Origin: Mobula hypostoma
Taxonomy: Eukaryota
DNA: 64,000 bases
Assembly (NCBI RefSeq): GCF_963921235.1
Contig: NC_086097.1
Span: 53,136,001-53,200,000 of the forward strand
Direction: 5' to 3'
Shown here: in pieces, positions 5,900-62,974 of the stretch
Layout: every line of letters begins with the position of its first letter
Numbering within the stretch: the stretch's first letter is position 1
Notes under the pieces: model-generated
Databases searched by the model: none
Seen by the model: the letters and a program-made list of their open reading frames with translations, nothing else
Told to the model about the DNA's origin: nothing
Made by a program: the position numbers and the translations under genes

Positions 5900-6550
5900 A
5901 GTAATAAGGAAGGCAAATGCAATGTTAGCATTCATTTCAGGAGGACTAGAATATAAAAGCAAAGATGTAATGCTGAGGCTTTATAAGGTTCCGGTCAGAA
6001 CTACATCTGGAGTATTGTGTGCAGTTTTGGGTCCCGTATCTAGGAAAGGATGTGCTGGCATTGGAGAGGGTCTAGAGGAGGTTTATGGGAATGATTCCGG
6101 GAATGAAAGAGTTATCGTATGAGGAGTGTTTGATGATGTTAGGTCTGTATTTGCTGGAGTTTAGAAGATGAGATATCATTGAAGCCAACCAAATATTGAA
6201 AGGTCTAGAGTGGATGTGGAGGGGTTGTTTCACGGTGGGAGAGTAGAGGTTCAAAGGGCACAGGCTCAGTGTAGAAGGACAGCCCTTTAGATCAGGGATA
6301 GGAAAGTCAGAGAGATAGGAATGTGTTTGGCCAGAGGGTGGTAAATCTGTGGGATTCGTTGCTGTGGAAGCCGAGTCATTGGGTGTATTTAAAGTGGAAG
6401 GAGATAAGTTCTTGATTAGCAAGGGTATCAAAAGCTCTGGTGAGAAGGCAGGAGAAAAGGGTTGAGAGGGTAATTAAATCAGCCATGATCAAATAGTGGA
6501 GAAGACTCAGTGAGTTGAATAGGCTAATTCTGCTCCTATGTGTTATAGCT
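5900..6550 (+). mobile_element. CR1/HER1-like LINE 3' fragment
   Basis: KANAMLAFISGGLEYKSKDVMLRLYK; CR1-type 3' end ...ttctgctcctatgtg. Confidence 0.8.
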
Positions 6551-17000: not shown

Positions 17001-19114
17001 TTGCTTCCTACCGAAAACCTTGCATTTCTCCTTTTCAAAGTTCTAACAAAGGGTTGGAGATTGTCTCTCTTCCCACAGATGCTGCCTCACGTGCTGAGAT
17101 TTACCAGTATTTTGGTTCTTGATACAGTATCTTTTGCAGTTCATCAGGAAAGGATGAACTTGCGCAAAGGGTGGGGAAATGAGGAGAGATGATATTCTTC
17201 ACCAAGTTTGGAACTGGGAATTCATTCCAGGGATAGTAAATGGAAGAAGATAGTTCAGGAAAACATGGAATTAGGGCAGCTCAGGTACAAAGTAGCCACC
17301 TTGAACAGGAAGATGAAGCAAAACCAAAAAAAAATACATGTGGGCAACAGACAAAGATCACAATAACGATCACTTATGATAATTTCTGTGATCTTTCCAT
17401 TTTAATTATGTAACCATTTTGAAGCATCTAGCTAACAGAAAGAGTTATGAAACAAATAATATATTTGGTACCTAGTTAAGGTTTTCAAATTCAGACATTC
17501 TATAAATTATAGGGTGTGAGTTAAATATGGACTTATTTTAAAGAATTTATGTTAGGATTTCATAAACCACACTGTAATGTTTACACATGATCTCCTCCTC
17601 CTGCTGGTCTTTTCACACCATTGCTTACCAATATAGAAGCCTTCTCACACAAGATGACTTTATTCTACAATAACAGAGACCATTTATTATTCATACTGCG
17701 ATCATTTTACTTGGTGTTATAATGGCTCTCTTTCTCTCATTGTTACACTTGGATTTTCATTATATTGCTTGACAATTAGAAGCAAGCAAAATCAACTATT
17801 TTGATTTATTAGATCAAAGATCTGTTTTCAATCCCTTAGGCTTTCCCTTGAATTAGGATACCTCTGATATTGAAAGATAGTGCCAAGGGAACATTCCAGA
17901 AAGAAGCTAGATGTTGAGAATGGTGTCAAAAAACGAAACAAGCTCATCAAACGAGAGACAGGAATGAAAAGTGAGACCGACAGCTGAATCTTGTGGGACG
18001 TACACAGTTCATAGGAGATAATGAACAGAACTTTCAAAAGACTGTATCCTCATGGTAGGATTGGGAAACCACCAGCTAGTGAAAGCTGTGGTGCCCTGTA
18101 TGTAAATGAGTTACATCAAGATAACAAGGACAGGGAAAAGGTTTACCAACCTTATTTCCTTGTTTTAATAAGCAACAGGACTGAATCACTGCAAGAAATC
18201 GCCCACAAATGCAATGAATCATGATTGCAGAAGTAACTGCTACAGTAAACTGCAATACAAAATCGAAAAGGGCATTAATCAACAAACAATGCATTTAAAT
18301 CTGTTCTTTAAAAAAAGCAACTAGGCCTTCCTGGAGTAATTGTGACTAATGAACACAACTTTCAAAAAACTGTATCCTCATGGTAGAATTGGAGAAACCA
18401 TCAGCACGTGAAAGTTGTAAAGCTAGGTTTAGTTCCTGGTTTGAATACTTTTCAGAAACACCCACAGAATTTAACAAAGTACAAACAAGCCTAGAATTCA
18501 TCAGGCCTCCCTCAATAACTTAGTATTTTGTGAGAAAAAATTAACATTTCACAAGAAAGTTATGTGACCCTGTGCTACCTCATGAAAGTTAAAAAAATAT
18601 TTAATCAGCATTGTTCATTCATTCAATGATATTGATTTTTTTTCCCATGACTGCACTCGGACCATTGCATAACGTTAAGCATTAAGTTTGATGACAGCTT
18701 TGACTGGTTCAAGGTTTATAAATAAACTTAACCAGATTATTGCACAGAATTATATAAACAAAGATAGATTTTCACAAGCTTTATCTGTTTATGTAGGCAC
18801 AGTCTTGAGTTGCTTGGTGAAAAAAGCTGGTTATGCAGAAATCTAACACATTTATATCCCTGCGGTTTAGCAGATTGAAATCTGTTGCACTGTTCTTGGT
18901 TTTCTTTTGCTTTTTTTTCTGGAGGAAATTGAATTGGCTGATTTTCTTTCATCCTAGCTGACTGCTCCCAGAACAGCTGCTGTTGTAACTGAGAGCAGTG
19001 TGCCATTTTATGGGTCTCTGTTTCCAACACGATTTTGTTGTCATGATGATTTAGAATAGTGTTTGTATCTTAAACAAACACACAGTAGAGTTTCTACAGT
19101 TTTAGGATGATAGT

Positions 19115-20584: not shown

Positions 20585-20894
20585 TGTGTTGGCGCGTGGC
20601 CAAGTGGTTAAGGCGTTCGTCTAGTGATTTGAAGGTCGCTAGTTCGAGCCTTGGCTGAGGCAGCGTGTTATGTCCTTGAGCAAGGCACTTAACCACACAT
20701 TGCTCTGCGACGACACCGGTGCCAAGCTGTATGGGTCCTAATGCCTTTCCCTCGGACAACATCAGTGGCATGGAGAGGGGAGACTTGCAGCGTGGGCAAC
20801 TCCTGGTCTTCCATACAACCTTGCCAAGGCCTGCACCCTGGAAACCTTCCAAGGCGCAAATCCATGGTCTCATGAGACTAACGGATGCCTATAA
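20585..20894 (+). mobile_element. tRNA-derived SINE with CORE-like block
   Basis: Pol III A box TGGCCAAGTGG (20597-20607), B box GTTCGAGCC (20642-20650), tgtccttgagcaaggcacttaacc; perfect 11-bp TSD aatactattga (20574-20584, 20895-20905). Confidence 0.88.
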
Positions 20895-20974: not shown

Positions 20975-22480
20975 TGATTCAAAGATTCAAAGTACACTTA
21001 TTAGCAAAAAAATGTATAAATTATACAACCTTGAGATTTGTCTGCTTACAGGCAGCCACAAAGCAAGGAACCCGAAGGAACTCAATTAAAAAAAATGCAC
21101 AGAGAACAAGAAAAAAAACACAAGTCGTGCAACGAAAGAAGCGAGCAACAGCATTCCAAACCAAATTGAGTCCTTGGATCTGAATCCACAGAGCAGCCCA
21201 AAGTATGCCCAAGCCTCGGTCTCAGCTCATCACATTAGTGGGGTAAATTGCCACAAAGCTGGCAGATCCAAAGCATAGCAGCTGGGCGGTCTCACAGCCT
21301 GAGCCTCACAGAGAGGCACGAACATTGTGGGAGAGCGAGTGATATCGGTCTGACTCTCGCCTCTGGTCCGGACACCCTGTTTTTCCAGTCTATCTGGGCC
21401 GGCAATCAAATTGTCCAGCCCAAGAGGCAGATCGCGCCCTGTATTAGGACCCGGGTCCCACCACAGCGATTTGCTCCGGGCCTGGACCTCGCCGCCCAGC
21501 GATTCGCTCCGGGCCTGGACCTCGCCGCCCAGCGATTCGCTCCGGGCCTGGACCTCGCCGCCCAGCAATTCGTTCCGGGCCTATACCAGCCTGCCCGTGA
21601 TTTGCTCTGGGCCTAGACCACGCCGCCCAGTGATTCGCTCGGGGCCTGGACCTCGCCGCCCAGCGATTCGCTCCAGGCCTGGACCTCGCTGCCCAGCGAG
21701 TCGCTCGGGGCCTGGACCTCGCCGCCCAGCGAGTCGCTCTGGGCCTGGACCTTGCCGCCCAGTGATTCTCTCCGGGCCTGGACCTCGCCGCCCAGCGAGT
21801 CGCTCCGGGCCTGGACCTCGCCGCCCAGCAATTCGTTCCGGGCCTATACCAGGCCGCCCAGCGATTTGCTCTGGGCCTAGACCACGCTGCCCAGCGATTC
21901 ATTCAGGGCCTGGACCTCGCCACCCAGCAATTCGTTCTGGGCCTATACCAGGCTGCCCGCGATTTGCTCAGGGTCTAGACCACGCCGCCCAGTGATTCGC
22001 TCCGGGCCTGGACCTCGCCGCCCAGCGAGTCGCTCCGGACCTGGACCTCGCCGCCCAGCGAGTCGCTCCGGGGCTGGACCTCGCCGCCCAGTGATTCGTT
22101 CAGGGCCTGGACCTCGCCGCCCAGCGAGTCGCTCCGGGCCTAGACCACGCCGCCCAGCTTGAAGCCGTTCTCCACCTCTCCAAATTGGCTCGGCGGTTAC
22201 ACCAATCCAGGCTCACACCCGGGTTGCTTAGATGGGCGTTGAAACTCCTCTGTCTCGACTCCTCCTCTCCGAATCACTCACTCCAACTCCATCCGTGTTG
22301 ATATGCAACGCACCAGCACGGCTCATCCCTTGAATTTGCTCCGCCTTCGCTGGCCTCTTCATTAATTACGTGATAGTTTAACACAATTTACTTCAGAAAA
22401 TATGTTATTAATAATGTTTTTGGTCAAATGTCTTGCCTTTCTAACTAGTCACCTTCAGTAGTGCCATCTTAAATCAGAAA
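20975..22480 (-). mobile_element. Non-autonomous REX1-type element carrying a minisatellite
   Basis: 5' end tttctgatttaagatggc; 3' tail (TTTGAATC)n; related segments at ~40485-40970 and ~44350-44947. Confidence 0.65.
21467..22158. repeat. 33-bp GC/CpG-rich minisatellite, ~21 units
   Basis: Unit ctccgggcctggacctcgccgcccagcgattcg; produces 11-aa periodic pseudo-ORFs. Confidence 0.95.
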
Positions 22481-23197: not shown

Positions 23198-23975
23198 AAG
23201 TCAAGTCAAGTCGCTTTTATGTCATTTCAACCATAACTGAAAGTACAGTACACAGTAAAAACGAAACAACATTCCTCCAGGACCATGGCGCTACATGAAA
23301 CAACACAAAACTACACTAGACTATGTGAGACAGCACACAGCTACACTAGACTACGTGAATCAACACAAAACTACACTAGACTACCTGAAACAACACAAAA
23401 CTACACTAGACTACGTGAATCAACACAAAACTACACTAGACTACCTGAAACAACACAAAACTACACTAGACTACGTGAATCAACACAAAACTACACTAGA
23501 CTACCTGAAACAACACAAAACTACACTAGACTACGTGAATCAACACAAAACTACACTAGACTACGTGAATCAACACAAAACTACACTAGACAACCTGAAA
23601 CAACACAAAACTACACTATACTATGTGAATCAACACAAAACTACACTAGACTACCTGAAACAACATGAAACTACACTAGACTACCTGAAACAACACGAAA
23701 CTACACTAGACTACGTGAATCAACACAAAACTAGACTACCTGAAACAACACAAAACTACACTAGACTACGTGAATCAACACAAAACTACACTAGACTACC
23801 TGAAACAACACAAAATTACACTAGACTACGTGAAACAACACAAAACTACATTAAACTTCAGGCCTACACAGGACTACGTAAAGTGCACAAAACAGTGCAA
23901 GACAGTATAATAATTAATAAACAAGACAATAGGTACAGTAAAGGACAAATTACAATATAATAATAAATGACGTAA
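23198..23975 (-). mobile_element. REX1-like 3'UTR fragment (same family as 255-1366)
   Basis: Co-linear with 257-560, including the (TTGAC)n tail. Confidence 0.88.
23290..23850. repeat. 30-bp minisatellite, ~18-19 units
   Basis: Unit ctacactagactac(g/c)tgaa(t/a)caacacaaaa; one 5-bp-deleted unit at ~23731. Confidence 0.95.
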
Positions 23976-24109
23976 AACTTTGATAATCTAGAACCCTCAG
24001 ATTAACATTAGTGTCAGAATGACAGATGCTATGGACTGTTGGATACTGCTCCTATTAACTCAACAGACCTTTAATGCACATCTTAAGTAAAAAAAAAGCT
24101 TATTACACT

Positions 24110-24334
24110 CAAACAACAGGAATTCTGCAGATGCTGGAAATTCAAGCAACATACATCAAAGTTGCTGGTGAACGCAGCAGGCCAAGCAGCATCTGTAGGA
24201 AGAGGTGCAGTCGACGTTTCAGGCCGAGACCCTTCGTCAGGACTAACTGAAGGAAGAGTGAGTAAGGGATTTGAAAGTTGGAGGGGGAGGGGGAGATCCA
24301 AAATGATAGGAGAAGACAGGAGGGGGAGGGATAG
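24110..24334 (-). mobile_element. Penelope-like 3' terminus insertion (225 bp)
   Basis: Perfect 13-bp TSD agcttattacact (24097-24109, 24335-24347); contains a hammerhead motif. Confidence 0.88.
24208..24245 (-). ncRNA. Minimal type-I hammerhead ribozyme motif (core intact)
   Basis: UAGUC-CUGACGA-A-GGGUCUCGGCCU-GAAAC-GUC^GACUG. Confidence 0.75.
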
Positions 24335-24357
24335 AGCTTATTACACTGTATTATTGT

Positions 24358-24903
24358 AAGATGCTGGAAATCCGAGCAACAAACAGAAAATGCTGGAGGA
24401 ACTCCGCAAGGCCAGGCAGCATCTATGGAAAAAAGTACAGTTGACGTTTTGGGCCAAAACCTTCAGCAGGACTGGAGAGGAAAGGCAGAGGAGTAAATAT
24501 AAAAGATGATGGGGAGGGGGAGGGCAGAGAAACACCAGATGACAGGTGAAACCTGAAGGGGGAGGGATGAAGTAAAGAGCTGGGAAGTTGATTGGTGAAA
24601 GAGATAGAAGGCCATGGAAGAAAGAAAAAAAAAGGGGGGCGAGCACCAGAGGGAGGTGATGGGCAGGCAAGAGGATAAAGTGAGAGAAGGAAAAGGGGAT
24701 GGAAAATGGTGAAGGGGAGCAAATGGGGGGCATTACGGGAAGTTTGAGAAATCGATGCTTATGTCATCAGGTTGGAGGCTATCCAAATGGAATATAAGGT
24801 GTTGTTCCTCCATCCTAAGTGTGGCCTTATCATGACAGTGGCGGAGGCCATGGATGAACATATCGGAATAGGAATGGGAAGTGGAATTAAAATGGGTGGC
24901 TAC
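24358..24903 (-). mobile_element. Penelope-like 3' fragment (older subfamily)
   Basis: GIY-YIG C-terminal sequence plus terminus; hammerhead degenerate (CUGCUGA, AAAA). Confidence 0.8.
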
Positions 24904-26219
24904 TTTTTATAAATGCACACTATTTGATAACTTGGATTGCTAATATTTGGAATGCAACCCCAAAAGGATTAAAGGATGCTCTAGCTTTTGTGACTTAACA
25001 TAAGCTTGGAACTAAGTAAACCTCTGGGGTGCGAGATGTGGGTGACTGGATGAGGATGAGGATGAGGAGCAGAAGACCTGTTAGTTGGAGGCGGAGAAGG
25101 GCAAATTCCATTCTAGGAGAGCAAAATCCTGCCCGTGGTCACTTTCTTCAGACCATCAAGACTTAGTTGGCTTTTCTCTCCATTCCTAACCATCAAAAGG
25201 TCTCTGCAACATCTGTATATCTACCTACTCAAATTAGCATCCTGGTTCCTTCAATGACCTCTACAAAAATTTAGATCCTATCATCCTCACCCCGCGGACC
25301 ACATAATTTTTCTTTGTTCACGTGGGTTCTTTAGTCCTTCACATCAGGTTTGCAGATGTGGCGTAGACAAATGTCAGGAAGCCTAGCGTGTCATCACTGT
25401 TATGCTTCAGGTTCTGGGGTGAATCTTCCCTTCACTTCCCCGTTTGTCTCTCCCTCCCTCCCCATTTTGAGCGACTCCATCTATTGCCAATTACAATCAC
25501 TTCCATTGTAATTTCTTACCTGATTCACAGGTTTTCTGCATTCTAGGCTTGTCTTCGTACCTGCTATAAATATTCACAGTACTTTATTTATGAACAAGGC
25601 AAAATATAAAAAAAAGGACCACATTTCCATTATCAGCAACAAAGGAGAGGAAATATCACAAAAACTCAATAGAAATAACATTGCTCCAGAAAACAGATTA
25701 ACAGTTAGGATGGGGGCTTTTATTTAGAGGAGGAAGAGGACCTCTAAACTTTAATTGGTTTGTTTTCTCCATAAGTATTTAGACTGGCAAAGTTTCCAGT
25801 ATCTTTTAAAAAATTTATTTAATTGGATTCTCTTTCCATCAATAATCATCCATTGATATTTTCAGTAGTCTTCTGTTTTCCTTATCAGCTCCTCTATATT
25901 CAGATTTGTTCAGTATGAGTGTGAGGAAAGAAAGGCTTGCATTTGTATCCCAGGGTCGGAAATCTGAAGGAAATCCTTCAGCCAGCAAGCGTCCTGTCTT
26001 CTGTCACAAGTCCTCATTTCATTCCAAACCGCTTCGTCTTGCCACCTTAACATGGAACATGGAACATGGAAACATGAAGCTCAGAGCAGGCTTAAGGAAC
26101 ACATTTTCTGGGTGGGCACATTACTGACAAAGTTCAAAATTCAAAGTAAATTTACTTGCAAAGTACATGTACTGTATGCCATCATATAAAACACTGGTTT
26201 CTTCAGGTTGTTACAGCCA

Positions 26220-26832
26220 GGGTCCACTACCTATTAAATGCTCCCGATGGCGCGGGTTTCAGTCCGTCTCCCGGGCTTCACACGTGGCTTAGCTACAGTA
26301 CTGCACCATTTTTCATGACGGGAAGGGTCAAAGGCAGGTTACTGGTACCTTAAAACCAGTCGCATCGGGCGGATGGGGCTTGTCAGCTCATGGAGGAAGA
26401 GGAAAACTCTGATCTCAAACCTCCGATGCCTTGCGGCTATACCCACTCATGGGGAAGGCTTCGAGGTAAACCCCGAGGTAAAATCCGCAGCTGGAGTCCG
26501 GAAGACAGCCCTACGTTGAGGTCAACACTGAATGGCGCCTCCTGCGACGTCGCTGGTGCAAAACTGTATCGGTTTCACCGTTTCTTGGGATTCATCAGCT
26601 GCGTGGGGAGGGGCAGCATGCTACCTGGGCAATAGCCCGCTCTGCATATCGCACTTCCCCGACTTGCATATCAAGTAACACACATCGAAGTTGCTGGTGA
26701 ACGCAGCATCTCTAGGAAGAGGTACAGTCGACGTTTCGGGCCGAGACCCTTCGTCAGGACTTGCATATCAGGTAGACGGCTGGGATGCAACATCTACGTT
26801 CAACCCTGACCAATGGAGGACCTCAACAACCC
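26220..26832 (+). mobile_element. CpG-rich non-coding SINE-like element (possibly RTE-related) hosting a Penelope mini-insertion
   Basis: Abrupt composition change within a REX tail; ends in caacaac; split at 26677/26758. Confidence 0.55.
26725..26761 (-). ncRNA. Minimal type-I hammerhead ribozyme motif (core intact)
   Basis: AGUC-CUGACGA-A-GGGUCUCGGCCC-GAAAC-GUC^GACU; predicted cleavage between 26730 and 26729. Confidence 0.8.
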
Positions 26833-27164
26833 CGAGAGTCATTTTCTTGTGGACAATTACAGTAAAGTATTGAGTATGCTTGCATCTGCATATTACTAAC
26901 ATTTACTATTATTTTCCTCTGGGGAATTAAAAAAAAAATTTAAATCTCCTTTTGACTATTCACTCCCCTTTACTGATCTATCTCAGCCAACGTGCCAAGG
27001 AGCCTTTTCCGGTCTCTTAACCTTTCGCTGACATTCCTTTCTGATCTCTCCCTTCCTCAATCTAAACTTTTCTTTCAAATCTCCAACTTTTCCCAGTCCC
27101 GATAAAAGATTATCAATCGGGAATGTTGACAGTTTCTCTCTTCACAGTTACACACAATCACGGA

Positions 27165-30400: not shown

Positions 30401-30964
30401 ACCCACTGCAATTTGCCTATCGCCACAAAAAGTCAATGGCAAATGCAATGCCAGTGGCTCTTCACACGGTTTTAGACCACCTGGACAACATAAACACCTA
30501 CGTCAAGATACTGTTCATCGACTATAGCTCAGCATTTAATATAATCATTCCCACAATCCTGATTGAGAAGTTGCAGAACCTGGGCCTCTGTACCTCCCTC
30601 TGCAACTGGATCCTCGACTTCCCAACTGGAAGACCACAATCTGTGTGGATTGGTGATAACATCTGCTCCTCACTGACGATCAACACTGGTGCACCTCGGG
30701 GGTGTTTGCTTAGCCCACTGCTCTACTCTCTATATACACATGACTGTGTGGCTAGGCATAGCTCAAATACCATCTATAAATTTGCTGACGATACAACCGT
30801 TGTTGGTAGAATCTCATACAGAGACGCGAGGGCGTATAGGAGTGAGAAATGCCAACCTGTGGAGGGGTGTTGCAGCAACAACCTGGCACTAGAAGTCAGT
30901 AAGATGAAAGAGCTGATTGTGGACTTCAGGAAGGGTAAGACAAAAGAACACATACCAATCCTCA

Positions 30965-33092
30965 AACACGAGGAAATCTGCAGATGCTGGAATTTCAAGC
31001 AAAACACATAAAAGTTGCTGGTGAACGCAGCAGGCCAGGTAGCATCTCTAGGAAGAGGTACAGTTGACGTTTTGGGCCGAGGCCCTTCGTCAGGACTAAC
31101 TGAAGGAAGAGCTAGTAAGAGATTTGAAAGTGGGAGGGGGAGGGGGAGATCCAAAATGATAGGAGAAGACAGGAGGGGGATGGAAGGAGCCCAGAGCTGG
31201 ACAGGTGATTGGCAAAAGGGGTATGAGAGGATCATAGGACGGGAGGCCTAGGGAGAAAGAAAGGGGGAGGGGGGGAAGCCCAGAGGATGGGCAAGGAGTA
31301 TAGTGAGAGGGACAGAGGGAGAAAAAGGAGAGAGAGAAAAAGAATATAATAAGTAAATAAATAAGGGATGGGGTACAAGGGGAAGGTGGGGCATTAATGG
31401 AAGTTAGAGGAAGTCAATGTTCATGCCATCAGGTTGGAGGCTACCCAGACGGAATATAAGATGTTGTTCCTCCAACCTGAGTGTGGCTTCATCTTGGCAG
31501 TAGAGGAGGCCGTGGATAGACATATCAGAATGGGAATGGGACGTGGAATTAGAGGGTTAACATATGAGGAACGTTTGTCTGCTCTTGGACTGTATTCCTT
31601 GGAGTTTAGAAGAATGAGGGGAGACCTCATAGAAATATTTCGAATGTTAAAAGGCATGGACAGAGTGGATGTGGCAAAGTTGTTTTCCATGATGGGGGAG
31701 TCCAGTACGAGAGGGCATGACTTAAGGATTGAAGGGCGCCCATTCAGAACAGAAATGCGAAGAAATTTTTTTAGTCAGAGGGTGGTGAATCTATGGAATT
31801 TGTTGCCATGGGCAGCAGTGGAGGCCAAGTCATTGGGTGTATTGAAGGCAGAGATTGATAGGTGTCTGAGTAGCCAGGGCATCAAAGGTTATGGTGAGAA
31901 GGCGGAGGAGTGGGACTAAATGGGAGAATGGATCAGCTCATGATAAAATGGCGGAGCAGACTCGATGGGCCAAATGGCTGACTTCTGTTCCTTTGTCTTA
32001 TGGTCTTATGTCTTATGAAATTAAAATGTGTGGCCACTGGGAGATCCTGCTTTCTCTGGCGGACAGAACATAGTTGTTCAGTGAAACGGTCTCCTAGTCT
32101 GCGTTGGGTCGCACCAATATATATAAGGCCGCATCAGGAGCACCAGATGCAGTGTATCACCCCAGCTGACTCACAGGTGAAGTGTCGCCTCACCTGGAAG
32201 GACTGTCTGGGGCCCTGAATGGTGGTAAGGGAGGAAGTGTAAGGGCATGTGTGGCACTTGTTCCGCTTACAAGGATAAGTGCTGGGAGGGAGATCAGTGG
32301 GGAGGGATGGGGGGGGGAATGAATGGACAAGGGAGTCACGAAGGGAGCAATCCCTGCGGGGGGGGGGAGAGGGAAAGATGTGCTTAGTGGCGGGATCCAG
32401 TTGGAGGTGGCAGAAGTTACGGAGAATTATATGTTGGACCCGGAGGCTGGTGGGGTGGTAGGTGAGGACAAGGGGAACCCTATTCCTAGTGGGGTGGCGG
32501 GAGGATGGGGTGAGAGCAGATGTGCATGAAATGGGAGAGATGCATTTGAGAGCAGAGTTGATGGTGGAGGATGGGAAGCCCCTTTCTTTAAAAAAGGAGG
32601 ACATCTCCTTCGTCCTGGAATGAAAAGCCTCATCCTGAGAGCAGATGCGGCGGAGACAGAGGAATTGCAAGAAGGGGATGGCATTTTTGCAAGACACAGG
32701 ATGAGAAGAGGAATAGCCAAGGTAGCTGTGAGAGTCCGTGGGCTTATAGTAGACATTTGTAAATAAGCTGTCTCCAGAGGTAGAGACAGAAAGATCTAGA
32801 AAGGGGAGGGAGGTGTTGGAAATGGACCAGGTAAACTTGAGGGCAGGGTGAAAGTTGGAGGCAAAGTTAGTGAAGTCAACGAGCTCAGCACGCGTGCAGG
32901 AAACAGTGCCAATGCAGTCGTTGATGTAGCGAAGGAAAAGTGGGGGACAGATACCAGAATAAGTTTGGAACATGGATTGTTCCACAAAGCCAACAAAAAG
33001 GCAGGCATAGCTGGGACCCATATGGGTGCCCATAGCTACACCTTCAGTTTGGAGGAAGTGGAGGAGCCAAAGGAGAAATTATTAAGAGTAAG
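30965..33092 (-). mobile_element. Penelope-like element (RT + GIY-YIG), 5'-truncated, interrupted by a CR1
   Basis: MGTHMGPSYACLF...FLRYINDC...LPFLDL...YYKPTDSHSYL; FTCESAGVIHCIWC; 8-bp TSD aatcctca (30957-30964, 33093-33100). The hammerhead at 31061-31098 has GAAA>AAAA. Confidence 0.92.
31552..32015 (+). mobile_element. Young CR1-like LINE 3' fragment
   Basis: GLTYEERLSALGLYSLEFRRMRGDLIE; (TCTTATGG) tail; flanks tggaatta/tgaaatta. Confidence 0.9.
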
Positions 33093-35200: not shown

Positions 35201-36249
35201 CTTAGAGACACTTAAGAAACTCTTAAAAAGGCACACAGATGTTAGAAAAATGGAGGGGCATGTAGGAGGGAGTGCTAAGCTTGATCTTAAAGTAGGTTAA
35301 AAGTTTGGCACAGCATTATGGGCTAAAGGGCCTGTACTGTACTGTAACGTTCTGATTTCAGGAGTGCACTCACTAGCTGAAACTACTGTGCTAATTCAAG
35401 TCAAGAATCTATTAAATGGAAGGTGATCGCACAATTCATCCAGGCTGGTAGTAATACAAGGCTTCGGGAGCACCACAGACAGGAATGGCTGCATAGAAAC
35501 AGGTCAGTCCCTGGCCTGTAAACAAATATATTTTAAGTATGAACTGAGACCACATTTTCCTCTGTCCCTTTTATAACCTGAATCATGGTCGAGGAAGAGG
35601 TGTCTGCAGGATCAAAGCCAATCAGATTTTTCAGTCTCAAACTACTCAGTTCTGTGCCCCCCTTCCTTCCCATCTGCTGTCACTTGTAGAGTGTGTGTAC
35701 ATTCCAGTGTCATTCAACGTGTGCCTTTGCTTCTCTGAAGCTGATGTGCTGTGTCAGCCACCTGCAATCCTTCACTACCTCTCACTCGCACCACTAAAAT
35801 AAACAAAGGCTGCTTATGGGCACGCTTAGCATCTAACGGGCTGCTCACCGATACTGCTTCTTTATTTGGGCTGGATGCCGGTGTGTGTTTGCGATGGAAG
35901 TTGGTGCAGGAAGTGTGTGAGAGACACACAGTCAGAGAGCCCACTGATCAGGAAACCCAGGTGAAATGGCTGAGCTGCTGATCTTGTGGCCTTACACCAT
36001 CAGCAAACATGCTAATTTTCCACAAAACCAAGCAATGGAGATTTGGGGGTGGGGGGGGGGATGTTAGATCTTCAGGCCTATAGCCGCTTAAAAGGAATGG
36101 CTAGTGACATCATTAGACTCCTGGGGAGCAGCAGGAGGAGCGTGAAGGCTGTGGCTGCAGACCAGATGTAGGCAGCAAAGGCCTCAGTGACCATAGTCCA
36201 ACCTTCAGTGTTCCATGTCCAAATCCAGCTTAGACTGAGGTACAGAACT

Positions 36250-36845
36250 GTTGGGCACACTCCCGCTACGGCGTGACACCGTCGGGCACACTCCTGTCAC
36301 GGTGTGACACCGTCGGGCACACTCCCACAATGGCGCGACACCGTTGGGCATATCCCCGCCATGGCATGACACTGTTGGGCACGCTCCCACCATGCGTGAC
36401 ACCGTTGGGCACGTCCCCGCCATGGCATGACACCGTCGGGCACGTCCCCGCCACGGCATGACACCGTCGGGCACGTCCCCGCCACGCCACGGTGTGACAC
36501 CATTGGACACGCTCCCACCATGGCGTGACACGGTCGGGCACGTCCCCGCCACGGCATGACATTGTCGGGCATGCTCCCGCCACGCCACGGTGTGACACCG
36601 TCGGACACGACCCCACCACGGCATGGCACCATCGGGCACGCCCCTGCCTCAGCGTGACGCTCCCGCCACGGCGTGACACCGTTGGGCACGCCCCCGCCAC
36701 GGCGTGACACCCTTGGGCACACTCCCACCATGGCGTGACACCCTTGGCACACTCCCACCATGGCGTGACACCCTTGGGCACACTCCCACCGGGACGTGAC
36801 ACACTCCCGCAATGCCATGACACCATCGGGCACACTCCCACCATA
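36250..36845. repeat. ~31-bp GC/CpG-rich minisatellite, ~19 diverged units
   Basis: Unit gccacggcgtgacaccgtcgggcacactccc with variants. Confidence 0.92.
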
Positions 36846-36947
36846 GCCCCATCACCATGCAGTGCAACCATTTGCCAGCCAGTGTTGGTTCTGGTTCTAA
36901 AAGCGCTCTGAGAAATCACAGAGCTGTTCCAGGCACAAAGAGTGTAA

Positions 36948-38653
36948 CACACATCAAAGTTGCTGGTGAACGCAGCAGGCCAGGCAGCATCTCTAGGAAG
37001 AGGTACAGTCGACGTTTCAAACCGAGACCCTTCGTCAGGACTAACTGAAGGAAGAGTTAGTAAGAGATTTGGAAGTTGGAGGGGGAGGGGGAGATCCAAA
37101 ATGATAGGGGAAGACAGGAGGGGGAGGGATGGAGCCAAGAGCTGGACAGGTGATTGGCAAAAGGGGATATGAGAGGATCATGGGACAGGAGGCCCAGGGA
37201 GAAAGACAATGGGGGTGGGGGAACCCAGAGGATGGGCAAGGGGTATAGTAAGAGGGAGAAAAAGGAGAGTGAGAGAAAGAATGTGTGTATAAAAATAAGT
37301 AATAGATGGGGTACGAGGGGGAGGTGGGGCATTAGCGGAAGTTAGAGAAGTCGATGTTCATGCCATCAGGTTGGAGGCTACCCAGACGGAATATAAGGTG
37401 TTGTTTCTCCAACCTGAGTGTGGTTTCATCTTTACAGTAGAGGAGGCCATGGATAGACATGTCAGAATGGGAATGGGATGTGGAATTAAAATGTGTGGTT
37501 ACTGGGAGATCCTGCTTTCTCTGGCGGACAGAGCATAGGTGTTCAGCAAAGCGGTCTCCCAGTCTGCGTCGGGTCTTGCCAATATATAGGCCACATCGGG
37601 AGCACCGGACGCAGTATATCACCCCAGCCGACTCACAGGTGAAGTGTTGCCTCACCTGGAAGGACTGTTTGGGGCCCTGAATGGTGGTAAGGGAGGAAGT
37701 GTAAGGGCATGTGTAGCACTTGTTCCGCATACAAGGATAAGTGCCAGGAGGTAGATCAGTGCGGAGGGATGGGGGGGACGAATCGACAAGGGAGTCGCGC
37801 AGGGAACGATCCCTGCGGAAAGCAGTGAGAGTGGGGGAGGGAAAGATGTGCTTAGTGGTGGGATCCCGTTGGAGGGGCGGAAGTTAAGGAGAATAATATG
37901 TTGGACCCGGAGGCTGGTGGGGTGGTAGGCGAGGACCAGGGGAACCCTATTCCTAGTGGCGTGGCGGGAGGATGGAGTGAGAGCAGATGTACGTGAAATG
38001 GGGGAGATGCGTTTGAGAGCAGAGTTGATAGTGGAGGAAGGGAAGCCCCTTTCTTTAAAAAAGGAAGACATCTCCCACGTCCTGGAATGAAAAGCCTCAT
38101 CCTGAGAGCAGATGTGGCGGAGACGGAGGAATTGCGAGAAGGGGATGGCATTTTTGCAAGAGACAGGGTGAGAAGAGGAATAGTCCAGATAGCTGTGAGA
38201 GTCAGTAGGCTTATAGTAGACATCAGTGGATAAGCTGCCTCCAGAGACAGAGACAGAAAGATCTAGAAAGGGGAGGGAGGTGTCAGAAATGGACCAGGTA
38301 AACTTGAGGGCAGGGTGAAAGTTGGAGGCAAAGTTAATAAAGTCAACAAGCTCAGCATGCGTGCAGGAAGCAGCGCCAATGCAGTCATCAATATAGCGAA
38401 GGAAAAGTGGGGGACAGATACCAGAATAGGCACGGAACATAGATTGTTCCACAAAGCCAACAAAAAGGCAGGAATAGCTAGGACCCATACGGATGCCCAT
38501 AGCTACACCTTTAGTTTGGAGGAAGTGGGAGGAGCCAAAGGAGAAATTATTAAGAGTAAGGACTAATTCCGCTTTAAAGAGATGATCTAAACTTCTTCGG
38601 TGTAGGCATTACCGGAAGAGGCTTCGCAGTAGTGAATTTTAAAAACTGAAGAG
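36948..38653 (-). mobile_element. Penelope-like element (RT + GIY-YIG endonuclease), frameshifted
   Basis: ORFs 37652-38500 (FLRYIDDC) and 37332-37730 (VIYCVRCSRCGLYIGKTRRRLGDRFAEH); 11-bp TSD aaagagtgtaa (36937-36947, 38654-38664). Confidence 0.93.
37006..37043 (-). ncRNA. Minimal hammerhead ribozyme motif (core intact, weak stem II)
   Basis: UAGUC-CUGACGA-A-GGGUCUCGGUUU-GAAAC-GUC^GACUG. Confidence 0.65.
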
Positions 38654-41600
38654 AAAGAGTGTAAGATTATTTCAATTACAATGCCAGGATTTTCTCACTT
38701 CCAGATTTCACTTATTAGAGACAGACATACAGAAAATTGGCAGGCCTAGAGAGATAAAGATAAAGATGACAGTGATGTGCAGTGAGGGTGAGCAACTTCC
38801 TGAAACAGGGGAAGTGGGAGATATTTGGCCTCTGAGCAGGATGGGAGGGAGGTCTGAACAGATCAGTTAATAAAAAAAGGCACTGAAGCTTTTTATGTGG
38901 TCTGCATTACTCATTTACCCGGGGCCTCAACCTGCCACTGGAGTGTCTGCCTGAGGACTTTGGAAAGATTATGAGAAGGTTTGATGGCATAGCTATAGGG
39001 AATAGGTTTCTCTTGCTATACAGACTGGAATTAGGGCCACGAATCCACAATAATCATTAATGGATCAAAAAAAGGAAGTAAAGGAGCTTTTCTTTTTAAA
39101 TCTAGAGTGATGAGATGCTGGCGCTCAATGCCACAAGGAGAAGATGATCAGTCCTGTGTGATGCATCAAAGGGAGGCTAGATGAGGAGAAACTGAGTTGA
39201 AGACGATGTCCTGGGGGTAATGAATAGTATGGTTGAGCTCTCTGTATGCTTTGAAACATAAACATCTGTTGGTCAATGTGTTGCATCTATGCTCCAAGTT
39301 CAACATAATGCTGTTTACTTTGACTGATGGATAAGCTGATGCACATCTCTAAATATACACTGATTAGAAACTCATTCAAACAAAGTTCATTTATACAGTG
39401 ATATTTGCATTAAATAAGGTAAAGCCAGTTTAAATACAAATATAATTTTTAAAATTAAAAATACCATAGCAGCTCACAAAGCTGTACATTGTTGGGATAG
39501 TTCTCACATGTTTTATACGGTCTTCCTGCCTTACTCTTCAATGGACTGTACATATCATTACGATCAGAATGAATCCATATTGTATGTGTATCCCGAGTTG
39601 GATTCCTGGTGAGCGCTATGGCAATCAGAACATTACCAACACTACTGCTTTAGTCAGTTTTCAGTGTGAGCAATTTTTTTCCCTCTTATTTTCCATAGAA
39701 GATGAAGAAAAATAATGTTGCGCTTCAGAACTGAAACTAAAGCTGCTGTTTTAAGTAAAACAAAACACAACGAATTGTTAATTAACCCAAGAGCTTCTGC
39801 AGAAGATGCAAGTCCAGAGTAACACACACAAAATGCTGGAGGACACAGCAGGTCAGGCTGAATCTATGAAGAGAAATAACCAGTCGACGTTTTGGGCTGA
39901 GACCCATATACCCATCTACAGAAAGTTCATAAAGTATTTAGAATATTAACAGTAACAACATAGTAAACACTAGAATCAATTTTGCAATTAAACTCCAGGT
40001 GTTCTTGGGATGCAATAATCATGAGATTAAATTCACCTTGTGAAATGGTACCTTGTGGTGAGCTTGATGCACCTCTGTTTGACTGCTTGGAAATGTAGCA
40101 CAAACCCATTGACTCCAGCAATTGATTTTTAATGCTAACAAGGAATTCAAAGTTAGTGGTTATTTTCTATTGTAATGTCCAAGTGCACTGAAGCTCAAAA
40201 GTAATTGTGATGTTCTGATACACTGATAACCTGTGTCCTGCGCCTGATTAGAACTTCATGTGATGCAGTTATTCAAGCTTAATTCATATTTTTTTCTTTT
40301 TGGAAGTCTCACACCAGAATTACAATATAAACCATAAAAATAACAGCTCGGAAATTGTGTACAACAGTTCTTGCTGAATTAGCATGGAAATTCAGCATTG
40401 TTATGGTTCCCAAGGTGAACAATAGTCAAATATTTTATTGATAATTTACCAAATGCACAATTCTAACTTGATATTGTTACAAACATTCAAAGCACATTTA
40501 TTACCAAAGAATGTATAAATTATATACCTTGAAATTTGCCTGCTTACAGGTGGTCACAAAGCAAGAAACCTGAATAACCCATTAAAAAAAACGCTAAAAA
40601 CCACTGTGCAGAGAAAGAGAAAAAATAGAACATACATATCATGCAAACAACAGAAGCAAGCCAACAGCATCCCGAACCAAACTAAGTCTCAGGTCCTTTC
40701 CTGGAACAGTTGGGGTAGGCCCAAGCCTCAGTCCCCAGTTCATCACATCAGCAGGGCGAAAACGTAGAGCAGCTGGATCAGTTCATAGCCTTGGTGCCAT
40801 GGAAAAAGGAATGAACATTTGCAGGACAGCGAGCAAAATCAGCCCAACTCTCAACTCCATTCCCAACACGGGCTCCCAGACAATCTGTGCTGGCATTTAA
40901 ATTGTCTAAGCACCGGATAGTGCCTCATTCTAGGACCCGGACTTCAGTGCCACGATACGCTTAGGGCTGCCCCAATTTTCATTGTACATTTTCATATCCA
41001 TTGTGATAATTTTAAGAGCAGTTTTGCACTGCATGGGTCAGCTGCTCAAATAAATTTTAAGTTACAGAGAGAACAATTTTGATCTCATCAGTCTGAGATC
41101 AATTTAAACAGAAGAACCCAGATGCCACAGATGACATTTGAAACAGTTACACCACCCAATCTTTCTGAAATTATCTAGAAAAAATGACTCAACCCCAATC
41201 GAAGAAATTTTGAACAGACTTCCTGCATACTACATAACATTTTTGATTTGTATGTTTCTATAATGTTGCTATAGATACATGAACAACCTATCACATGAAT
41301 ACCAAATTTGGGACCTATTTTGTAATGTGGAATTTCATCCTATGGGTAGTGGAGGAAGGTTGCCAAACCTCAATTGTAATTTATACCAGCTGTTGAAGAG
41401 TGAAATGATTTAACTCTGCCTAAGCAGCATGTATTCTGTGTTCTGGAGTAACAGAATGAACTAAATACAAAGTCAAAAGTTACGATCAAAATCATTTTCA
41501 AATTAATTTACAAAATGCAGTAAAATCTTTTCTGAAATAATCAACGTAACATTATGCAGAATAATATATTAATGGCCATAAATGAAATTATTACCATGTA

Positions 41601-42063: not shown

Positions 42064-45000
42064 CTTCCAGTGTTAGATCACCAACTCCACTAAATACTTT
42101 GAAATTTTCAAAACCTACCATCTCAGTTTATAAAATTCTAGCAATTCTAACTTTACTTTCGGTATTTTCACCTCACAATTTTAACTCCTTGATGTCAGAA
42201 TCAACACTGCACCCTCCACAAAGGGAAACCACCCTTTTTATGGTGTGTGTAGATCTGATCACTCTATGCAAAGAGAGATCAAACCTGGGGTTTTCATGCA
42301 GCTGTAACAACAATTCCAGTCTACTCACGTTCCCTTCCCTCAGAAGTACAGTATAAACCTGTATTCCATTACTCATTTGATTTTTACACCAATGACAATT
42401 TAATGGTCTATGGAATAAAAACAGAAAATTCTGGCAGTACTCAACAGGTCAGGCATCATCTGTGGGAAGGGCAGAGTTAACATTTCAAGTGAAGGACTGT
42501 TTCAGGCCCACATATATGGATCCAAAATTCTATGCATTGGTCATGCTTCCATCTTCTCACCATTTAGGAAGTACAAAGCTGTCCTTTCTGCCTGGTTTCT
42601 CTAGGGGACAAAGGTTTCGGAAAGTCATCCTGTAGGTAACAGGGTGAAAGCTGAAAGATGGGTTACTTAATCTTGTGTCACAGTGTTGTTGAATCTGCAT
42701 TCTATTTTCAGAACCGGAGTTCTATTTTTCTCCCAATGTGCCCCCCCCATGGCACACTGACTTCCCAAATGGTTCTGCACACACAATCGAGGTGGTCAAT
42801 CATTTACTTCAGACAACCTAGCCTCACAAACCTGTTCGTTTAGTCCGACTATCTCTCATGCTATTGATACCCTTGTAATATTGATGGTGTGGAAATTGGT
42901 GATGGTAATGCAGAAGTGCCAGGTCCCCTCTTTCCAAAGCTGGTCATTAACCAGCACAAGTCCAAGTGGTCAGGGTGCATACAGTTATGAATTTCTTTGT
43001 CATACAATAAATTGTGAAAGGAACTGAGTATTTCATTGTTCCCCTTCTGACATGAAGGACGTTAATCATATGTGGTTGATCAATGTCTAGTGGCTCAGTG
43101 AGTAGGTGCACTGGGTTCTTTCTTGTAAAAATGGCGTATACTTTATATCCTTCTTGTGAATGCTGCTAACCCGATGCCTGTGATGCTGCTGAAAGTAAGT
43201 TTTTCATTCCACCTGTGCATACATGCACTTGAGTATATGACAATAAAGATTTTGCATATTATTGTACAGATTACCATTTGTCTGGCGGATGCCAATGTTG
43301 AGAATAGATGAACTGAAGTCTTCTTGATTCTTCAGTGCCATAGCCTGGCACCAGTATAGTTTATGCATTTCTTGATGCTATTTGCTTTAGATCAAATTGG
43401 CTTGTGTTACCGGGAAGCGCAGAGATGAACTATCCACTCAGGGCAAAATGCACACTTCAGTCTTAACGTTTGCACACAGGTATTGAGCTCCGTCATTGTG
43501 AGGGGTGGGATGGTCAAAGAGCTGCCCATTGTTATTGATCAGTTGTTCTGTACATGATTCTTCACAGCCTAAGTACCTAGTTTTAGTAGTTTGTAATCTC
43601 TTAAGTCTGAAGTGATAAAAACTCAAATATGCAATTACACCAAAATGTGTAGCATTTTGTTAGTGGTGTCAATATGATTGATCCTTGGGGAGCATGAGAA
43701 TGCAGAGCAACACACTGTAAATGTTACATTGATTTCCTGTTGTTGAGTTCTGCCCAAGTTACTTTAACTTGTGAAAATTATAAAACAGATATAAACTGGT
43801 TGGTGCTGGTGGCCATTGAGGCTTGCAAATGGGTCTGGTACAACATGTGGTTAGGAACCACTCCAGAAAGGACCAGTCTACAAACAGTCTAACAGTAAAA
43901 TTTTGACTTGAATTTTGCTCAAATAATCCTCAACTGAATAATCAATATTTGATCAATAAAGAGATTTTACTCTTTTTCCAAGCTGGAATTACTGGAATTA
44001 GGATCCTGATGCACAAAGGAGAAATGTGGTTTTCTCCTTGCCTTACACATGTTCAATACAAACACCAAGGAACAGTTTTGAACAGTACCTTTGTTAAATG
44101 GTTTCCCATTCTCAATTTTATAGAATTTTGTATTATAGTCTCCTTGATCCTAATTCTTTGCAATTTAGCATAGTTTCATACTCCCTGGGCTTCATAATAC
44201 ACCAACAGAAGGTAACTGGCAGATTACCATTTTGTTATTAGTCCAAACACTGACAATGAATGCATTTATCTGTCTGGGAATTCTGTAGAATCAGAGTTCC
44301 TCCAGCATTTTGTGTGTGGTGCTTTGGATTTCCAGCATCTTCAGATTTTCTCATGTTTGAAATGGCGTTCTGAACTCAAGTTCATCCACTGACACGAAGC
44401 CACAGACCCTCAGTTCAACATAGAGCCAAGTCAACTTCACGGAGCAGCGAGCTGAACCAGCCCGTCCCTCGCCTCAGGCTCTGACACCCTGTCCTGTCCT
44501 TTCTCATCTGGCCCGGTGCTAAAATCATCGTCCAAACATTGCGTTCTGTTGCTTGGATACTCTCTGGGGCTTGGATTCCGCCACCTCAATTCAGGCTATC
44601 TCCAACCTTTGCAGTTCAGTCCGGTGCTTAAATTGTTGTCCAAACATCAGATTCTGCTACTTTGATACGCTCTGGGGCCTGGACTTTGCCACTTCAATTT
44701 GGCTTGTATCCCACTTTTCCAATTCAGCCCGGTATTTAAATCAATTGGGTCTTTCCTGCTGCTTTGCCTTGGTTCTATTGCATTGTATCGCCTCCAAGTC
44801 CAAACCCCAAAGGGAAGTTACAGGCTACTGTTGGTGGTGATCGTTTAACAGAAAAAGTGTGACTAACAAGGTATTTAGTTGTTTTCTCTGTTTCACTGGC
44901 CCCAGCTATTAGATGCTGAGGTTCACCAGCACCATCTTAAACCAGAAACCAAATAACAAGTTTTTATTATAGACAGTAGTCAGAAAACTCACAGCTAGAC

Positions 45001-49530: not shown

Positions 49531-49646
49531 TCCTACTTATCCCTGCAAGCGGCCTAAGTGAGACACCTGTCCTTGTCACATCCTCCCTCACCTCCATTCC
49601 GGGTCCCAAACAGTCCTTCCAGGTGAGGCAACACTTCACCTGTGAA

Positions 49647-51204: not shown

Positions 51205-51725
51205 CTTCACCTGTGAATCTGCTGGGGTCACCTTTGTGCCTGATGCTTCCTATGCAGCATTAGTGAGATCTATTATAAATTGGGGGAATACTTCAAGCAC
51301 CTCAGCTCCATCCGCCTAAAGTGGAACCTCCCAATGGCCTAACATTTTAACTCGAATTCTCATTCTGACATGTTGGTCCATGGTCTCCTCTTGTGCCGCG
51401 ATGAGGCCACCTTCAGGATGGAGGAACAACACCTTAAATTCCATCTGGTAGCCTCCAACCTGATTCTTCCTCTGGTGAAAGCATTTCCCTCCCCCTCCCC
51501 ACTTCTTCTATTCCCCACTATGGCCTCTTACTTCTTCTCATCTGCTTATCACCTCCCCCTGGGTCCCCTTCTCCTTTCCTTTTTCCTATGGTCCACTCTC
51601 CTCTCCTATCGGTTTCCTTTCTCTCCAGTCTTTTACCTTTCCAACCCAGTTGGTTTCACCTATCACCTTCTTGCTATCCTCCTTCCCTCATTTATTCTGG
51701 CATCTTCCCCTTCCTGTCCTGTCCT

Positions 51726-60490: not shown

Positions 60491-62814
60491 CATGCTTCAT
60501 TCTTCATCTTGACCACCTATAATATCCCCATCCCTGGAGCCAATCCAAGTCCTTAGTTCATCTGCCTCTTGCGTCGAAATAAATAGGTTTAAATCAATGG
60601 TTTTTGCTCTCCCTTTATGTGCCTCTGCCGATAGTGACAACTAAACTTGCTCTCATTTGCTACCATTTAACCCCCTGATTCCTAATCATCTACTCAGCTT
60701 AAATAGCAAGTAAAACAGACCTTACCGTAAAACAGTCAGTAAAATTGCATAAAATTCCACGGAAGCCTTAAGAAGCAATGCTATGATTTGACTCTAGCAC
60801 AAGGACAGCATTTAATTGGCTCCGTTTCTTGTCAGCAATAAGTGTTCCAGTAATTCTCTAAATGGGCCTTCTAACCTTTCTTAACAAATCAGTTCACACT
60901 GTCATAAAGAATATCACTAAACAACAACTTGTCCCAAGAGATAGAGAGTTGAGGAAGAAATCATCAGGAAAGACTGGTTATTAGAAATTGCTTTGCATGC
61001 TAGCCAAATGGCTGTTATTTAAAGGCCCATTGCTAATACCTTCAGGGTCTCCATGTTTATATTGACTATCTGCTTGGAGACTTCTGGACCTGTTTAGAGG
61101 CATAACATACTGTACATCTTCACAAGACTAATTCATAATTCCAGAGTGCTTTCAAGGCCCCTAAAGGGCCACAAAATCCTGACCTGGAACAAGCCTAACC
61201 ACACAGTTGAAGCCTTTTTCAGAGGGGGGTTCAACCTCACCCACCCTGCTGCCAGGGTGTCCAAAATGTCCAGTCCTAGCCTTGCAGCGATCACCAGAGT
61301 GACTGACTGAATCGCGACCTGGGCTAGCTGTCTGTCTGCACAATGCAACCAGGTTCCATTACCAGTCACACGCTTCTAGCTTTTAGCTCCACCTATCCCC
61401 ATTAAACTACTCTACCCACTCCTAAACTTTACTCATTCTCTTTTGAATTACCCACCCAGCTGCTGCAATACATAATCTTCCCAACTTATTGAGTGAGCTT
61501 GCAGAGGAAAAGACTCTGCCAACACAAATCTATGTAAAGTCTGCCCTATGGTAGACAATGCAATGCCAGCTATGTCACCACCACACCACCACTGCATTTG
61601 TGTAGCTCTGTAAACATAGGAACATAATTAGACTAGTTTCTTGAAATTGTTCTGCCAACCAATGAGATCTTTCCCCCTCAAATTTCATGCAGTTTAATGT
61701 GCACACATATCAAAAATCGTAGATTTTAAATGAATGTGTCATCTGTAGAAGAGGTCTAAACTTCTACCACACTTTGTACAATGAAGTTCTTTCTAACATT
61801 AACTCATGGAAGGTCTAGCTTTAAGAGTTAGACAACAGGTGTTTATATGACATAAGTGATTACAGTTGCAGACTATCTCGCCTTGGACTTAAGCATTTCA
61901 GTACAAGGTCTGAAGGGATATCACATATACTGCTCTGCAGGTGTAGTGACTCAAGCTATTGAATAACAAAGCTAGTTTTAAATTGCATCACAGTAGGTTT
62001 AGTGTTAAACGGATGTTCCCTTTCCTACTTTTTTCTAAGCAGAAAGACTTAGCCAACAGGAAACATTGTTATATGGACAGTAGAAACAGCCTTCAAAAAT
62101 GAATCATTCTTCCCAGTTCAAAAATGCCAGCACAGTGAAACACTTCTTCAGAGCCAAACCAGAAAATCCCTCCATGCAACTTGGAACACTTCACTAGTTG
62201 GGTTTTACAGGTAAACCAATCTAAGCGGAATTTCGAAATGAGCAACAGCATATTGAAGCGAAATAACTTTACCATTAAGTGGGGAAAAATCAATTTAAAA
62301 ATCTCAATGAATAAGAATTCTATGCTAATGTGTATAATGACAAGAGACTGCTCTCACCAGCCCCTTCAGTCTTTGCATCTCTCAATTACTGACAGCATGA
62401 AACTAACTGTGCAGTCTAGCAATGCTGTATTCAGCCTTTAAAAAGGTAATTATGTAATGCTCGACATTGTTTGTACCACTTTGAAAAATTACATTCTGAA
62501 CTACCCAGTTTATAATGTCTCCAAACTTAGATGCAATCTGCATACTTGAATATATTATGAAAGATGGTGGCCCCACAAGAAATCAATGTGGGGCAGTACC
62601 GGCCACACCCTGCTGGAGTTCCCAGTATCCACATTCATTATAATCTACATCACGACCAATCACTAACAAATTATACATCTACTTCAATCAAGCTTATCTG
62701 ATAATCTAATGAACAGTTTCAATAATCAATTCCATTGGCAGGAATCATGAAATGCAGAAGGATTAAGCAAAACAGAATCCAATATTGTTCAATTTATAAA
62801 GATTTTTTTTAAAA

Positions 62815-62946
62815 AACGAGAGAAATTCTGCAGGTGCTGGAAATCTGAGCAACACACACAAAATGCTGGAGGAACTCAGCAGGCTAGGCAGCATCAAGGA
62901 AAAGAGTACAGCTGATGTTTCGGGTCAAAACCCTTCAGCAGGACAA
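62815..62946 (-). mobile_element. Short Penelope-like 3' terminus with degenerate hammerhead
   Basis: GUC-CUGCUGA-AGGGUUUUGACCC-GAAAC-AUC. Confidence 0.75.
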
Positions 62947-62974
62947 GATTTCTTTTAAATTGTTCATTATGAAA

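Follow-up and report, generated by a model that had tools for sequence, protein, structure and literature searches.

A tail-less, 5′-truncated Penelope-like insertion with an intact hammerhead motif, probably joined to its target by a 4-nt match

Results

In a 64-kb stretch of DNA (the window), an 80-bp fragment of the terminal repeat of a Penelope-like element (PLE) lies between the two copies of a 17-bp target-site duplication and carries a complete hammerhead motif. We consider that it is probably an ordinary tail-less, 5′-truncated PLE insertion, whose 5′ end was set by a 4-nt match to the target. As a single locus it has little weight. It offers a tidy record of PLE integration, in which an uncut RNA template, a tail-less start and short matches at both junctions would be preserved together, and a usable presence/absence marker. 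Comparisons with published systems refer to the available parts of the papers cited.

A PLE fragment flanked by a 17-bp duplication

The insert, its duplication and the surrounding repeat are placed as follows.

26661..26677, plus strand: left copy of the target-site duplication, 17 bp, 16 of 17 positions identical to 26758–26774
26758..26774, plus strand: right copy of the duplication; this junction was also found in organism B
26678..26757, minus strand: insert-only PLE terminal-repeat sequence, 80 bp, with a tail-less 3′ end and a truncated 5′ end; 80 of 84 aligned letters equal copy 36946–37042
26702..26707, minus strand: 12-nt internal deletion between two GCAGC repeats, from alignment to other copies
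26195..26825 (ends approximate), no strand assigned: host repeat, multi-copy and CpG-rich, with a short CAA-type end and many paralogous contigs

The agreement between the two duplication copies extends no further on either side. Outside tandem arrays, a 16/17 repeat at equal spacing was met at none of 15,000 random positions, and with tandem arrays included at 227 of 20,000. The first-pass annotation had placed the duplication at exactly these positions and had described a very short Penelope retro-insertion with its own duplication; both statements hold. It had also presented the insertion as little more than the ribozyme, which overstates the case: the element contributes 84 nt on the minus strand if the shared GACT is counted with the 80 bp of insert-only sequence, and the ribozyme makes up 36 of them, under half. 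The tail of about 40 nt at the 3′ end of full copies is missing from 26678–26757. Loose contig ends before 26703 carry letters that the insert lacks, i.e. that are present in other copies.

We considered whether the single A/G mismatch of the duplication had been templated by the element RNA and rejected this, because the next base but one mismatches the element and a later transition is simpler. Among the 40 of 70 entries listed, neither 26674 nor 26771, the positions bearing on the ancestral base at the mismatch, was represented.

The host repeat measures about 535 bp (about 26195–26825 including the insert) and itself interrupts an older repeat, which is found whole at 7740–7843 and 53826–53903. 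The observed/expected CpG ratio is 0.78 in the host and 1.11 in the insert against 0.35 for the window, and CpGs are kept in both. The short CAA-type end resembles that of RTE-derived elements. The stretch 26134–26866 shows a three-level nesting, from the older repeat through the host repeat to the PLE scrap; a 5-bp duplication-like pair (26188–26192 and 26826–26830) flanks the host repeat.

The locus in other genomes

Public contigs from 4 of the 19 listed runs were aligned to 24050–27000. In organism A, contig depth was 12.2 at the left junction and 11.5 at the right, as compared with 11.3 in the unique flank, which hints at a single locus for both junctions, outside the host family. Organism B, represented by two runs of one sample, differed by 23 substitutions over a flank contig of 1,377 letters. 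One of its contigs, 2,683 letters long, begins at 26737 and can be followed to 26991, where it shows 2 differing letters and a gap of 2 letters. The right-junction contig holds 21 insert-only letters, fewer than the 31 set as the threshold for a bridge. These data indicate that the insertion predates the split of organisms A and B. The empty-site joint was not among the 15 joints listed out of 1,920, and for organism D no piece at the locus was among those listed, a result uninformative on presence.

The insert derives from an endonuclease-bearing PLE

At least 13 placeable copies of the same terminal-repeat family occur in the window; two old, diverged relics (about 17059–17114 and 42419–42468), whose ends could not be placed, are outside this count. 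Three of the copies are used repeatedly for comparison.

36946..38573, minus strand: longer tail-less copy of the same subfamily with reverse transcriptase (RT) and GIY-YIG frames, identified from motifs and cluster matches; family reference
62799..62959, minus strand: second short copy (62815–62944) together with its 15-bp duplication; full tail, decayed hammerhead
39795..39906, minus strand: short copy ending inside stem II, without the catalytic core; a search for duplications of at least 7 bp found none

The nearest long copy, 36946–38573, shares 80 of 84 aligned letters with the insert. The frames upstream in this copy resemble a reverse transcriptase and, after it, a GIY-YIG endonuclease, with motifs visible by eye. 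A Pfam search of these frames returned RVT_1 only (E 0.13, below cut-off) and nothing at E 0.001, while the Atlas gave RT/HTH_animal clusters at 0.90–0.94 and GIY-YIG clusters at 0.96–0.97, which are leads without E-values. Judged from these motifs and matches, the insert is a fragment of an endonuclease-bearing PLE. The frame at 37332–37883 contains a C-x4-C-xx-C motif; the Neptune-clade linker between RT and endonuclease has the form Cx2-5CxxC, and the likeness may point to membership of that clade.

About 40 nt separate the full-tail copies (24108, 30961, 49645) from the tail-less ones (the insert, 36946, 51207). Duplications of 8–15 bp also flank four other copies in the window, and the copy at 24108–24337 shows 2–3-nt overlaps at both of its junctions. 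In the copy at 62815–62944 the duplication matches at 14 of 15 positions, the 5′ end lies 1 nt short of the stem I edge and microhomology is absent. The earlier remark that this copy and the one at 39795–39906 end within or just after the hammerhead was correct, the latter ending inside stem II.

Several other arrangements of family members were noted. The long copies 30961–33092 and 36946–38573 are independent, and their ends fall about 13 nt apart within the RT region; the former is flanked by an 8-bp duplication and broken by a different repeat at 31552–32015. A composite PLE insertion spans 49535–51207 and consists of a long copy, an inverted tail-less arm (50893–51207) and a short inverted endonuclease piece (49535–49645). 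A young copy with a 13-bp duplication (24097–24347) and an older one from a different subfamily (24358–24904) lie 10 bp apart in the same orientation, and the pair brings two hammerhead motifs to within about 230 nt of each other.

Pattern scans for further copies gave 1 and 0 matches in viral contigs, 32 in metagenome contigs and 0 and 0 in genome contigs; at all 33 loci the match was confined to the 20–28 letters of the pattern, and nothing was usable. In a protein-based scan of viral contigs, none of the six candidate loci was confirmed.

An intact minimal hammerhead motif

The following motif was identified from its anatomy and from the description of minimal hammerheads (min-HHRs) in PMC4209133.

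26726..26761, minus strand: minimal type I hammerhead motif, uncut, with cleavage predicted between 26730 and 26729; anatomy as in PMC4209133

The core, helix II, a short helix I and a palindromic stem III without a loop are all present. With the metazoan PLE min-HHRs described in the available part of PMC4209133 the motif shares the CUGANGA and GAAA cores, the extra base before stem II, the lack of a helix III loop, the palindromic ACGU and a helix I of 4 bp. In anatomy we found no difference from them. Rfam gave no match for 26726–26761 at the gathering score and none at E ≤ 5, a PDB sequence search gave 0 matches, and four stretches that were folded gave unremarkable z-scores (−1.16 to +1.20).

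Over its 36 nt the motif shows 0 differences from the majority letters of eight window copies, as compared with 1–9 in the other seven, which agrees with its earlier description as complete and as the best-preserved copy. Such preservation needs no selection, because about 2 changes in the 118 nt of insert and duplication leave a 36-mer unchanged at roughly even odds. We take the insert to be a dead monomer whose ribozyme has stayed intact owing to the young age of the copy. Dispersed single hammerhead motifs have been attributed to truncated PLEs, and cleavage of a single min-HHR was undetectable in vitro (both in the available part of PMC4209133); self-cleavage is reported to be protein-assisted in PAc (PMC11167929, in part). 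The motif at 26726–26761 may be capable of self-cleavage as a dimer or with the help of a protein.

A second hammerhead-like arrangement was seen in the host repeat at 26558–26602 (minus strand), with both core boxes and weak stems. It scored 16 bits with Rfam HH9 (E 0.68) and shares the strand of the PLE motif, from which it lies about 125 nt downstream; in a relative of this stretch, at 20705–20736, the core is absent. The arrangement is probably due to chance; it would be the nearest dimer partner.

The insert differs from a retrozyme

The first-pass annotation had likened the insert to a minimal retrozyme. Such an insert would be a unit excised by its own ribozyme and independently mobile. 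The hammerhead motif is indeed intact, and retrozymes, proposed to derive from PLE terminal repeats, have consensus lengths down to 51 bp (bioRxiv 10.64898/2026.07.22.740005 and PMC7761336, in the parts available). The insert shares with metazoan non-LTR retrozymes a PLE origin, a non-coding sequence and a type I hammerhead. According to the same two sources, however, the non-LTR retrozymes are built of tandem units with a hammerhead in each, which is cut to give circular RNAs, while the insert is one isolated fragment with ends that bear no relation to the cleavage site: it has one motif and no tandem unit with complete hammerheads, its ends were not set by cleavage, and its 5′ end is 28–32 nt from the predicted cut. 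Furthermore, a single min-HHR showed no detectable cleavage in vitro in the available part of PMC4209133, and the junction contigs are at single-locus depth (12.2 and 11.5 versus 11.3), which gives no indication of spread. The minimal-retrozyme reading is therefore already largely refuted, and we regard it as very improbable. The insert is not a retrozyme; at most, it is the type of fragment from which a tandem could later arise.

Both junctions carry short matches

The contribution of sequence matches was evaluated at the two ends of the insert.

26671..26677, plus strand: presumed primer 3′ end, matching the element's tail boundary at 6 of 7 positions, or 7 of 7 with one T-G wobble
26758..26761, plus strand: 4-nt microhomology GACT, common to the right duplication and stem I; a single GACT is present in the first 385 nt of the element

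At the 3′ junction, the insert ends at the tail-less end common to copies 36946 and 51207. In the available part of PMC11167929, reverse transcription by a PLE protein begins at two internal sites that delimit the tail, and a tail-less end therefore needs no special cause. A match of the type seen at 26671–26677 occurs at 0.17% of window positions for at least 6/7 and at 0.14% for 7/7 with wobble; the right duplication copy matches the tail boundary at 5 of 7 positions, against a background of 1.6%. These values suggest that primer and template paired at the 3′ junction. PLE priming in vitro, as far as described in the available part of PMC11167929, involves no homology, whereas here the primer end would pair over 6–7 of 7 nt.

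At the 5′ junction, the overlap of 4 nt between the 5′ strand of stem I and the duplication, already seen in the first pass, was confirmed as GACT at 26758–26761. Within the first 385 nt of the element this sequence occurs only as the 5′ strand of stem I (background 0.37%). Since the target starts with GACT, and GACT is unique in these 385 nt, stem I offered the best join available. The 5′ end of the insert lies 28–32 nt upstream of the predicted cleavage site. The template must therefore have been uncut, because a cleaved one would have lost the core. The earlier proposal that the template ends at the ribozyme is not supported, as the insert retains the core; a stall at the RNA fold, for its part, would be expected where the reverse transcriptase enters the fold, not after all of it has been copied.

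These observations fit published work on PLEs. In the available part of PMC11167929, hammerhead mutations left insertion in vitro unchanged, and none of the RNA reads began or ended at the hammerhead cut; the insert gives an in vivo view of what was suggested in vitro, namely that the hammerhead is uncut in the RNA that is copied. Both microhomology 5′ joins and microhomology deletions have been described for PLEs (PMC3846280, in part), and in Chlamydomonas the median length of newly arisen PLE insertions is 128 bp (PMC9977147, in part). With the 5′-truncated, tail-less insertions of endonuclease-bearing PLEs in the available parts of PMC11167929, PMC8557442 and PMC3846280 the insert shares its terminal-repeat origin, the absence of the optional 30–40-bp tail, strong 5′ truncation, a target duplication, a microhomology join and an uncut hammerhead RNA template. 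It differs in that its 5′ end falls on the stem I edge, where we found no published peak among the titles and abstracts covered.

We infer the following order of events and enzymology. Cutting by the endonuclease would have left a 17-nt stagger in the host repeat. The nicked strand, its last 7 nt pairing with the RNA at the tail boundary, would have primed synthesis at the tail-less internal start, and the enzyme would have copied about 96 nt of uncut RNA, including the whole hammerhead. The cDNA end may then have used GACT to pair with the opposite target strand at its 3′ end, after which both strands would have been filled in. The geometry of a 17-nt stagger would allow such pairing between the 3′ end of the minus strand and that of the cDNA. 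A 12-nt slip between the two GCAGC repeats, during or after copying, would account for the internal deletion. The end would lie at stem I mainly because nowhere else in the terminal repeat is a 4-nt match to this target available.

The same sequence would result if a longer PLE insertion, with the same 17-bp duplication, had later been shortened by a deletion running from the stem I GACT to the one at the start of the right duplication, or if a staggered break had been patched from a DNA or cDNA template. The insert already contains one microhomology deletion, and matches at both junctions fit templated repair. Such a course, however, requires an extra event; the 3′ end coincides with the tail-less start of the family, the length of the duplication fits the family, and organism B already has the short right junction. 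We consider it improbable.

Do 5′ ends cluster at the stem I edge?

Two observations weigh against an end set by the GACT match alone: the copy at 62815–62944 ends at the same edge without microhomology, and loose contig ends pile up at 26761 with low agreement (0.36) in runs X1 and X5. We also weighed a rival reading, in which 5′ ends genuinely concentrate at the stem I edge for reasons other than self-cleavage and a class of 85–135-bp insertions keeping the whole motif results. The cause of such a hotspot could be a block of the reverse transcriptase by splicing factors on an unspliced template, or a fold-back of the hammerhead cDNA (GACT onto AGTC) that releases the template.

The 5′ ends of the 13 window copies lie at approximately 65, 80, 125, 136, 137, 230, 327, 470, 563, 568, 1,250, 1,670 and 1,683 nt from the tail end, the one at 327 being that of the inverted arm. 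Relative to the ribozyme, eight copies pass well beyond it, two stop short, one ends inside and two end at its 5′ edge; none ends at the cleavage site (about 105 nt). The two copies at the edge belong to different subfamilies and end within 1 nt of each other, which speaks for a hotspot; 62815–62944, with its own 15-bp duplication (14/15), has no microhomology, which favours the first-pass reading. However, a smooth fit gives probabilities of 0.07, 0.15 and 0.23 that one of the 12 remaining copies falls within 1, 3 and 5 nt, respectively, of this site, which was chosen after the fact. Near-coincident ends are also seen elsewhere (563/568 and 1,670/1,683), and 52% of random sets would be expected to contain some pair of ends no more than 4 nt apart.

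In the public contigs, loose ends at 26761 were among the six largest groups in two of four runs, with at least 193 contigs in X1 (median 64 letters) and at least 164 in X5 (77 letters). These counts are lower bounds, being taken from the 24 groups listed of 4,620. Among those listed, the group at 26761 is as large as that at the tail end, 24110 (at least 193 contigs, 255 letters, agreement 0.41); for runs X6 and X11, 26761 was not among the groups listed. In a rough simulation with the window subfamilies, an agreement of 0.36 requires about 50–75% of non-family flanks, which speaks for a hotspot. The pile is confounded, because the reference stops at 26761, so that longer copies and subfamilies diverging after GACT all collect there, and further because the conserved motif aligned more readily than other parts. 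The loose-end consensus is purine-rich, like the subfamilies that diverge after GACT, and the counts are incomplete; both speak against a hotspot. Contig depth along the element provides no truncation profile, being dominated by subfamilies and private mutations. The window and contig data are thus compatible with an excess of 5′ ends at the stem I edge and establish none. Among literature titles and abstracts, with few subscription journals covered, no peak of 5′ ends at the hammerhead edge was reported.

A predicted splice acceptor at the same edge

The edge coincides with a candidate splice site.

37041..37065, minus strand: predicted 3′ splice site immediately 5′ to the hammerhead, with branch-like motifs at −21 and −17, a pyrimidine tract and AG at the start of stem I; a prediction made on the letters only

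The 5′ end of the insert maps to −2 to +3 of the predicted acceptor AG. The same is true of both edge copies, and neither carries a foreign exon. All 8 copies compared, which represent three lineages, have a branch-like yUnAy at −21 to −33, as compared with 21 of 61 background windows; AG stands at the junction in 6 of 8 copies and TACTAAC is present in one. In the available parts of PMC4209133 and PMC2377424 (the latter for intron details), the 5′-UTR intron of D. virilis Penelope ends at the 5′ end of helix I, and in Fig. S3 of PMC4209133 a YAG was made out by eye in three fish rows, two bases ahead of the core and in the same register. A predicted acceptor at the 5′ edge of helix I is a feature in common with D. 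virilis Penelope. For that element splicing was shown, whereas here the acceptor is predicted and no donor was located; in the same parts of these papers, no link between its intron end and insertion ends is reported.

The branch-like motif, the junction AG, the D. virilis intron end and the three fish rows speak for a hotspot at this edge. Against it, the whole terminal repeat is about 79% pyrimidine, the acceptor AG is itself part of stem I, and no splice donor was found in the window copies. Taken with the post hoc choice of site and the confounded pile, this leaves a real hotspot unlikely, though a good deal less so than the later deletion or patch discussed above. If a peak does exist, splicing factors bound at the acceptor or fold-back of the cDNA would be a better cause than self-cleavage. 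The full proposal is that 5′ truncations pile up at the stem I edge, which would also be a conserved 3′ splice site of the terminal-repeat intron, with copying of the unspliced template stopping at a spliceosome-marked acceptor or through cDNA fold-back, so that the genome fills with uncut-ribozyme insertions of 85–135 bp; we hold it to be doubtful, slightly more so than the hotspot as such. Were the pile-up true, it would link PLE intron retention with a role of the hammerhead and would supply seeds for retrozyme tandems, and were the edge a genome-wide stop, this abundant family would allow a direct test of splicing factors and of cDNA folding as what terminates reverse transcription in PLEs. 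An ordinary insertion joined through GACT remains the reading that we prefer.

Some further features were observed at this edge and elsewhere in the window. The predicted 3′ splice site precedes the hammerhead in all subfamilies (37041–37065, 24243–24267 and 31096–31120, all on the minus strand), and in one subfamily a second AG lies 4 nt upstream of the predicted acceptor. Copy 51860 carries four repeats of a 5-nt unit at its stem I edge (51725–51740), and these have replaced the AG. Outside the family, 6460–6779 forms an imperfect palindrome of 320 bp with 75% self-match, and minisatellite arrays are present at 21464–22158, 23291–23857 and 36247–36847, the first and third of which are GC-rich.
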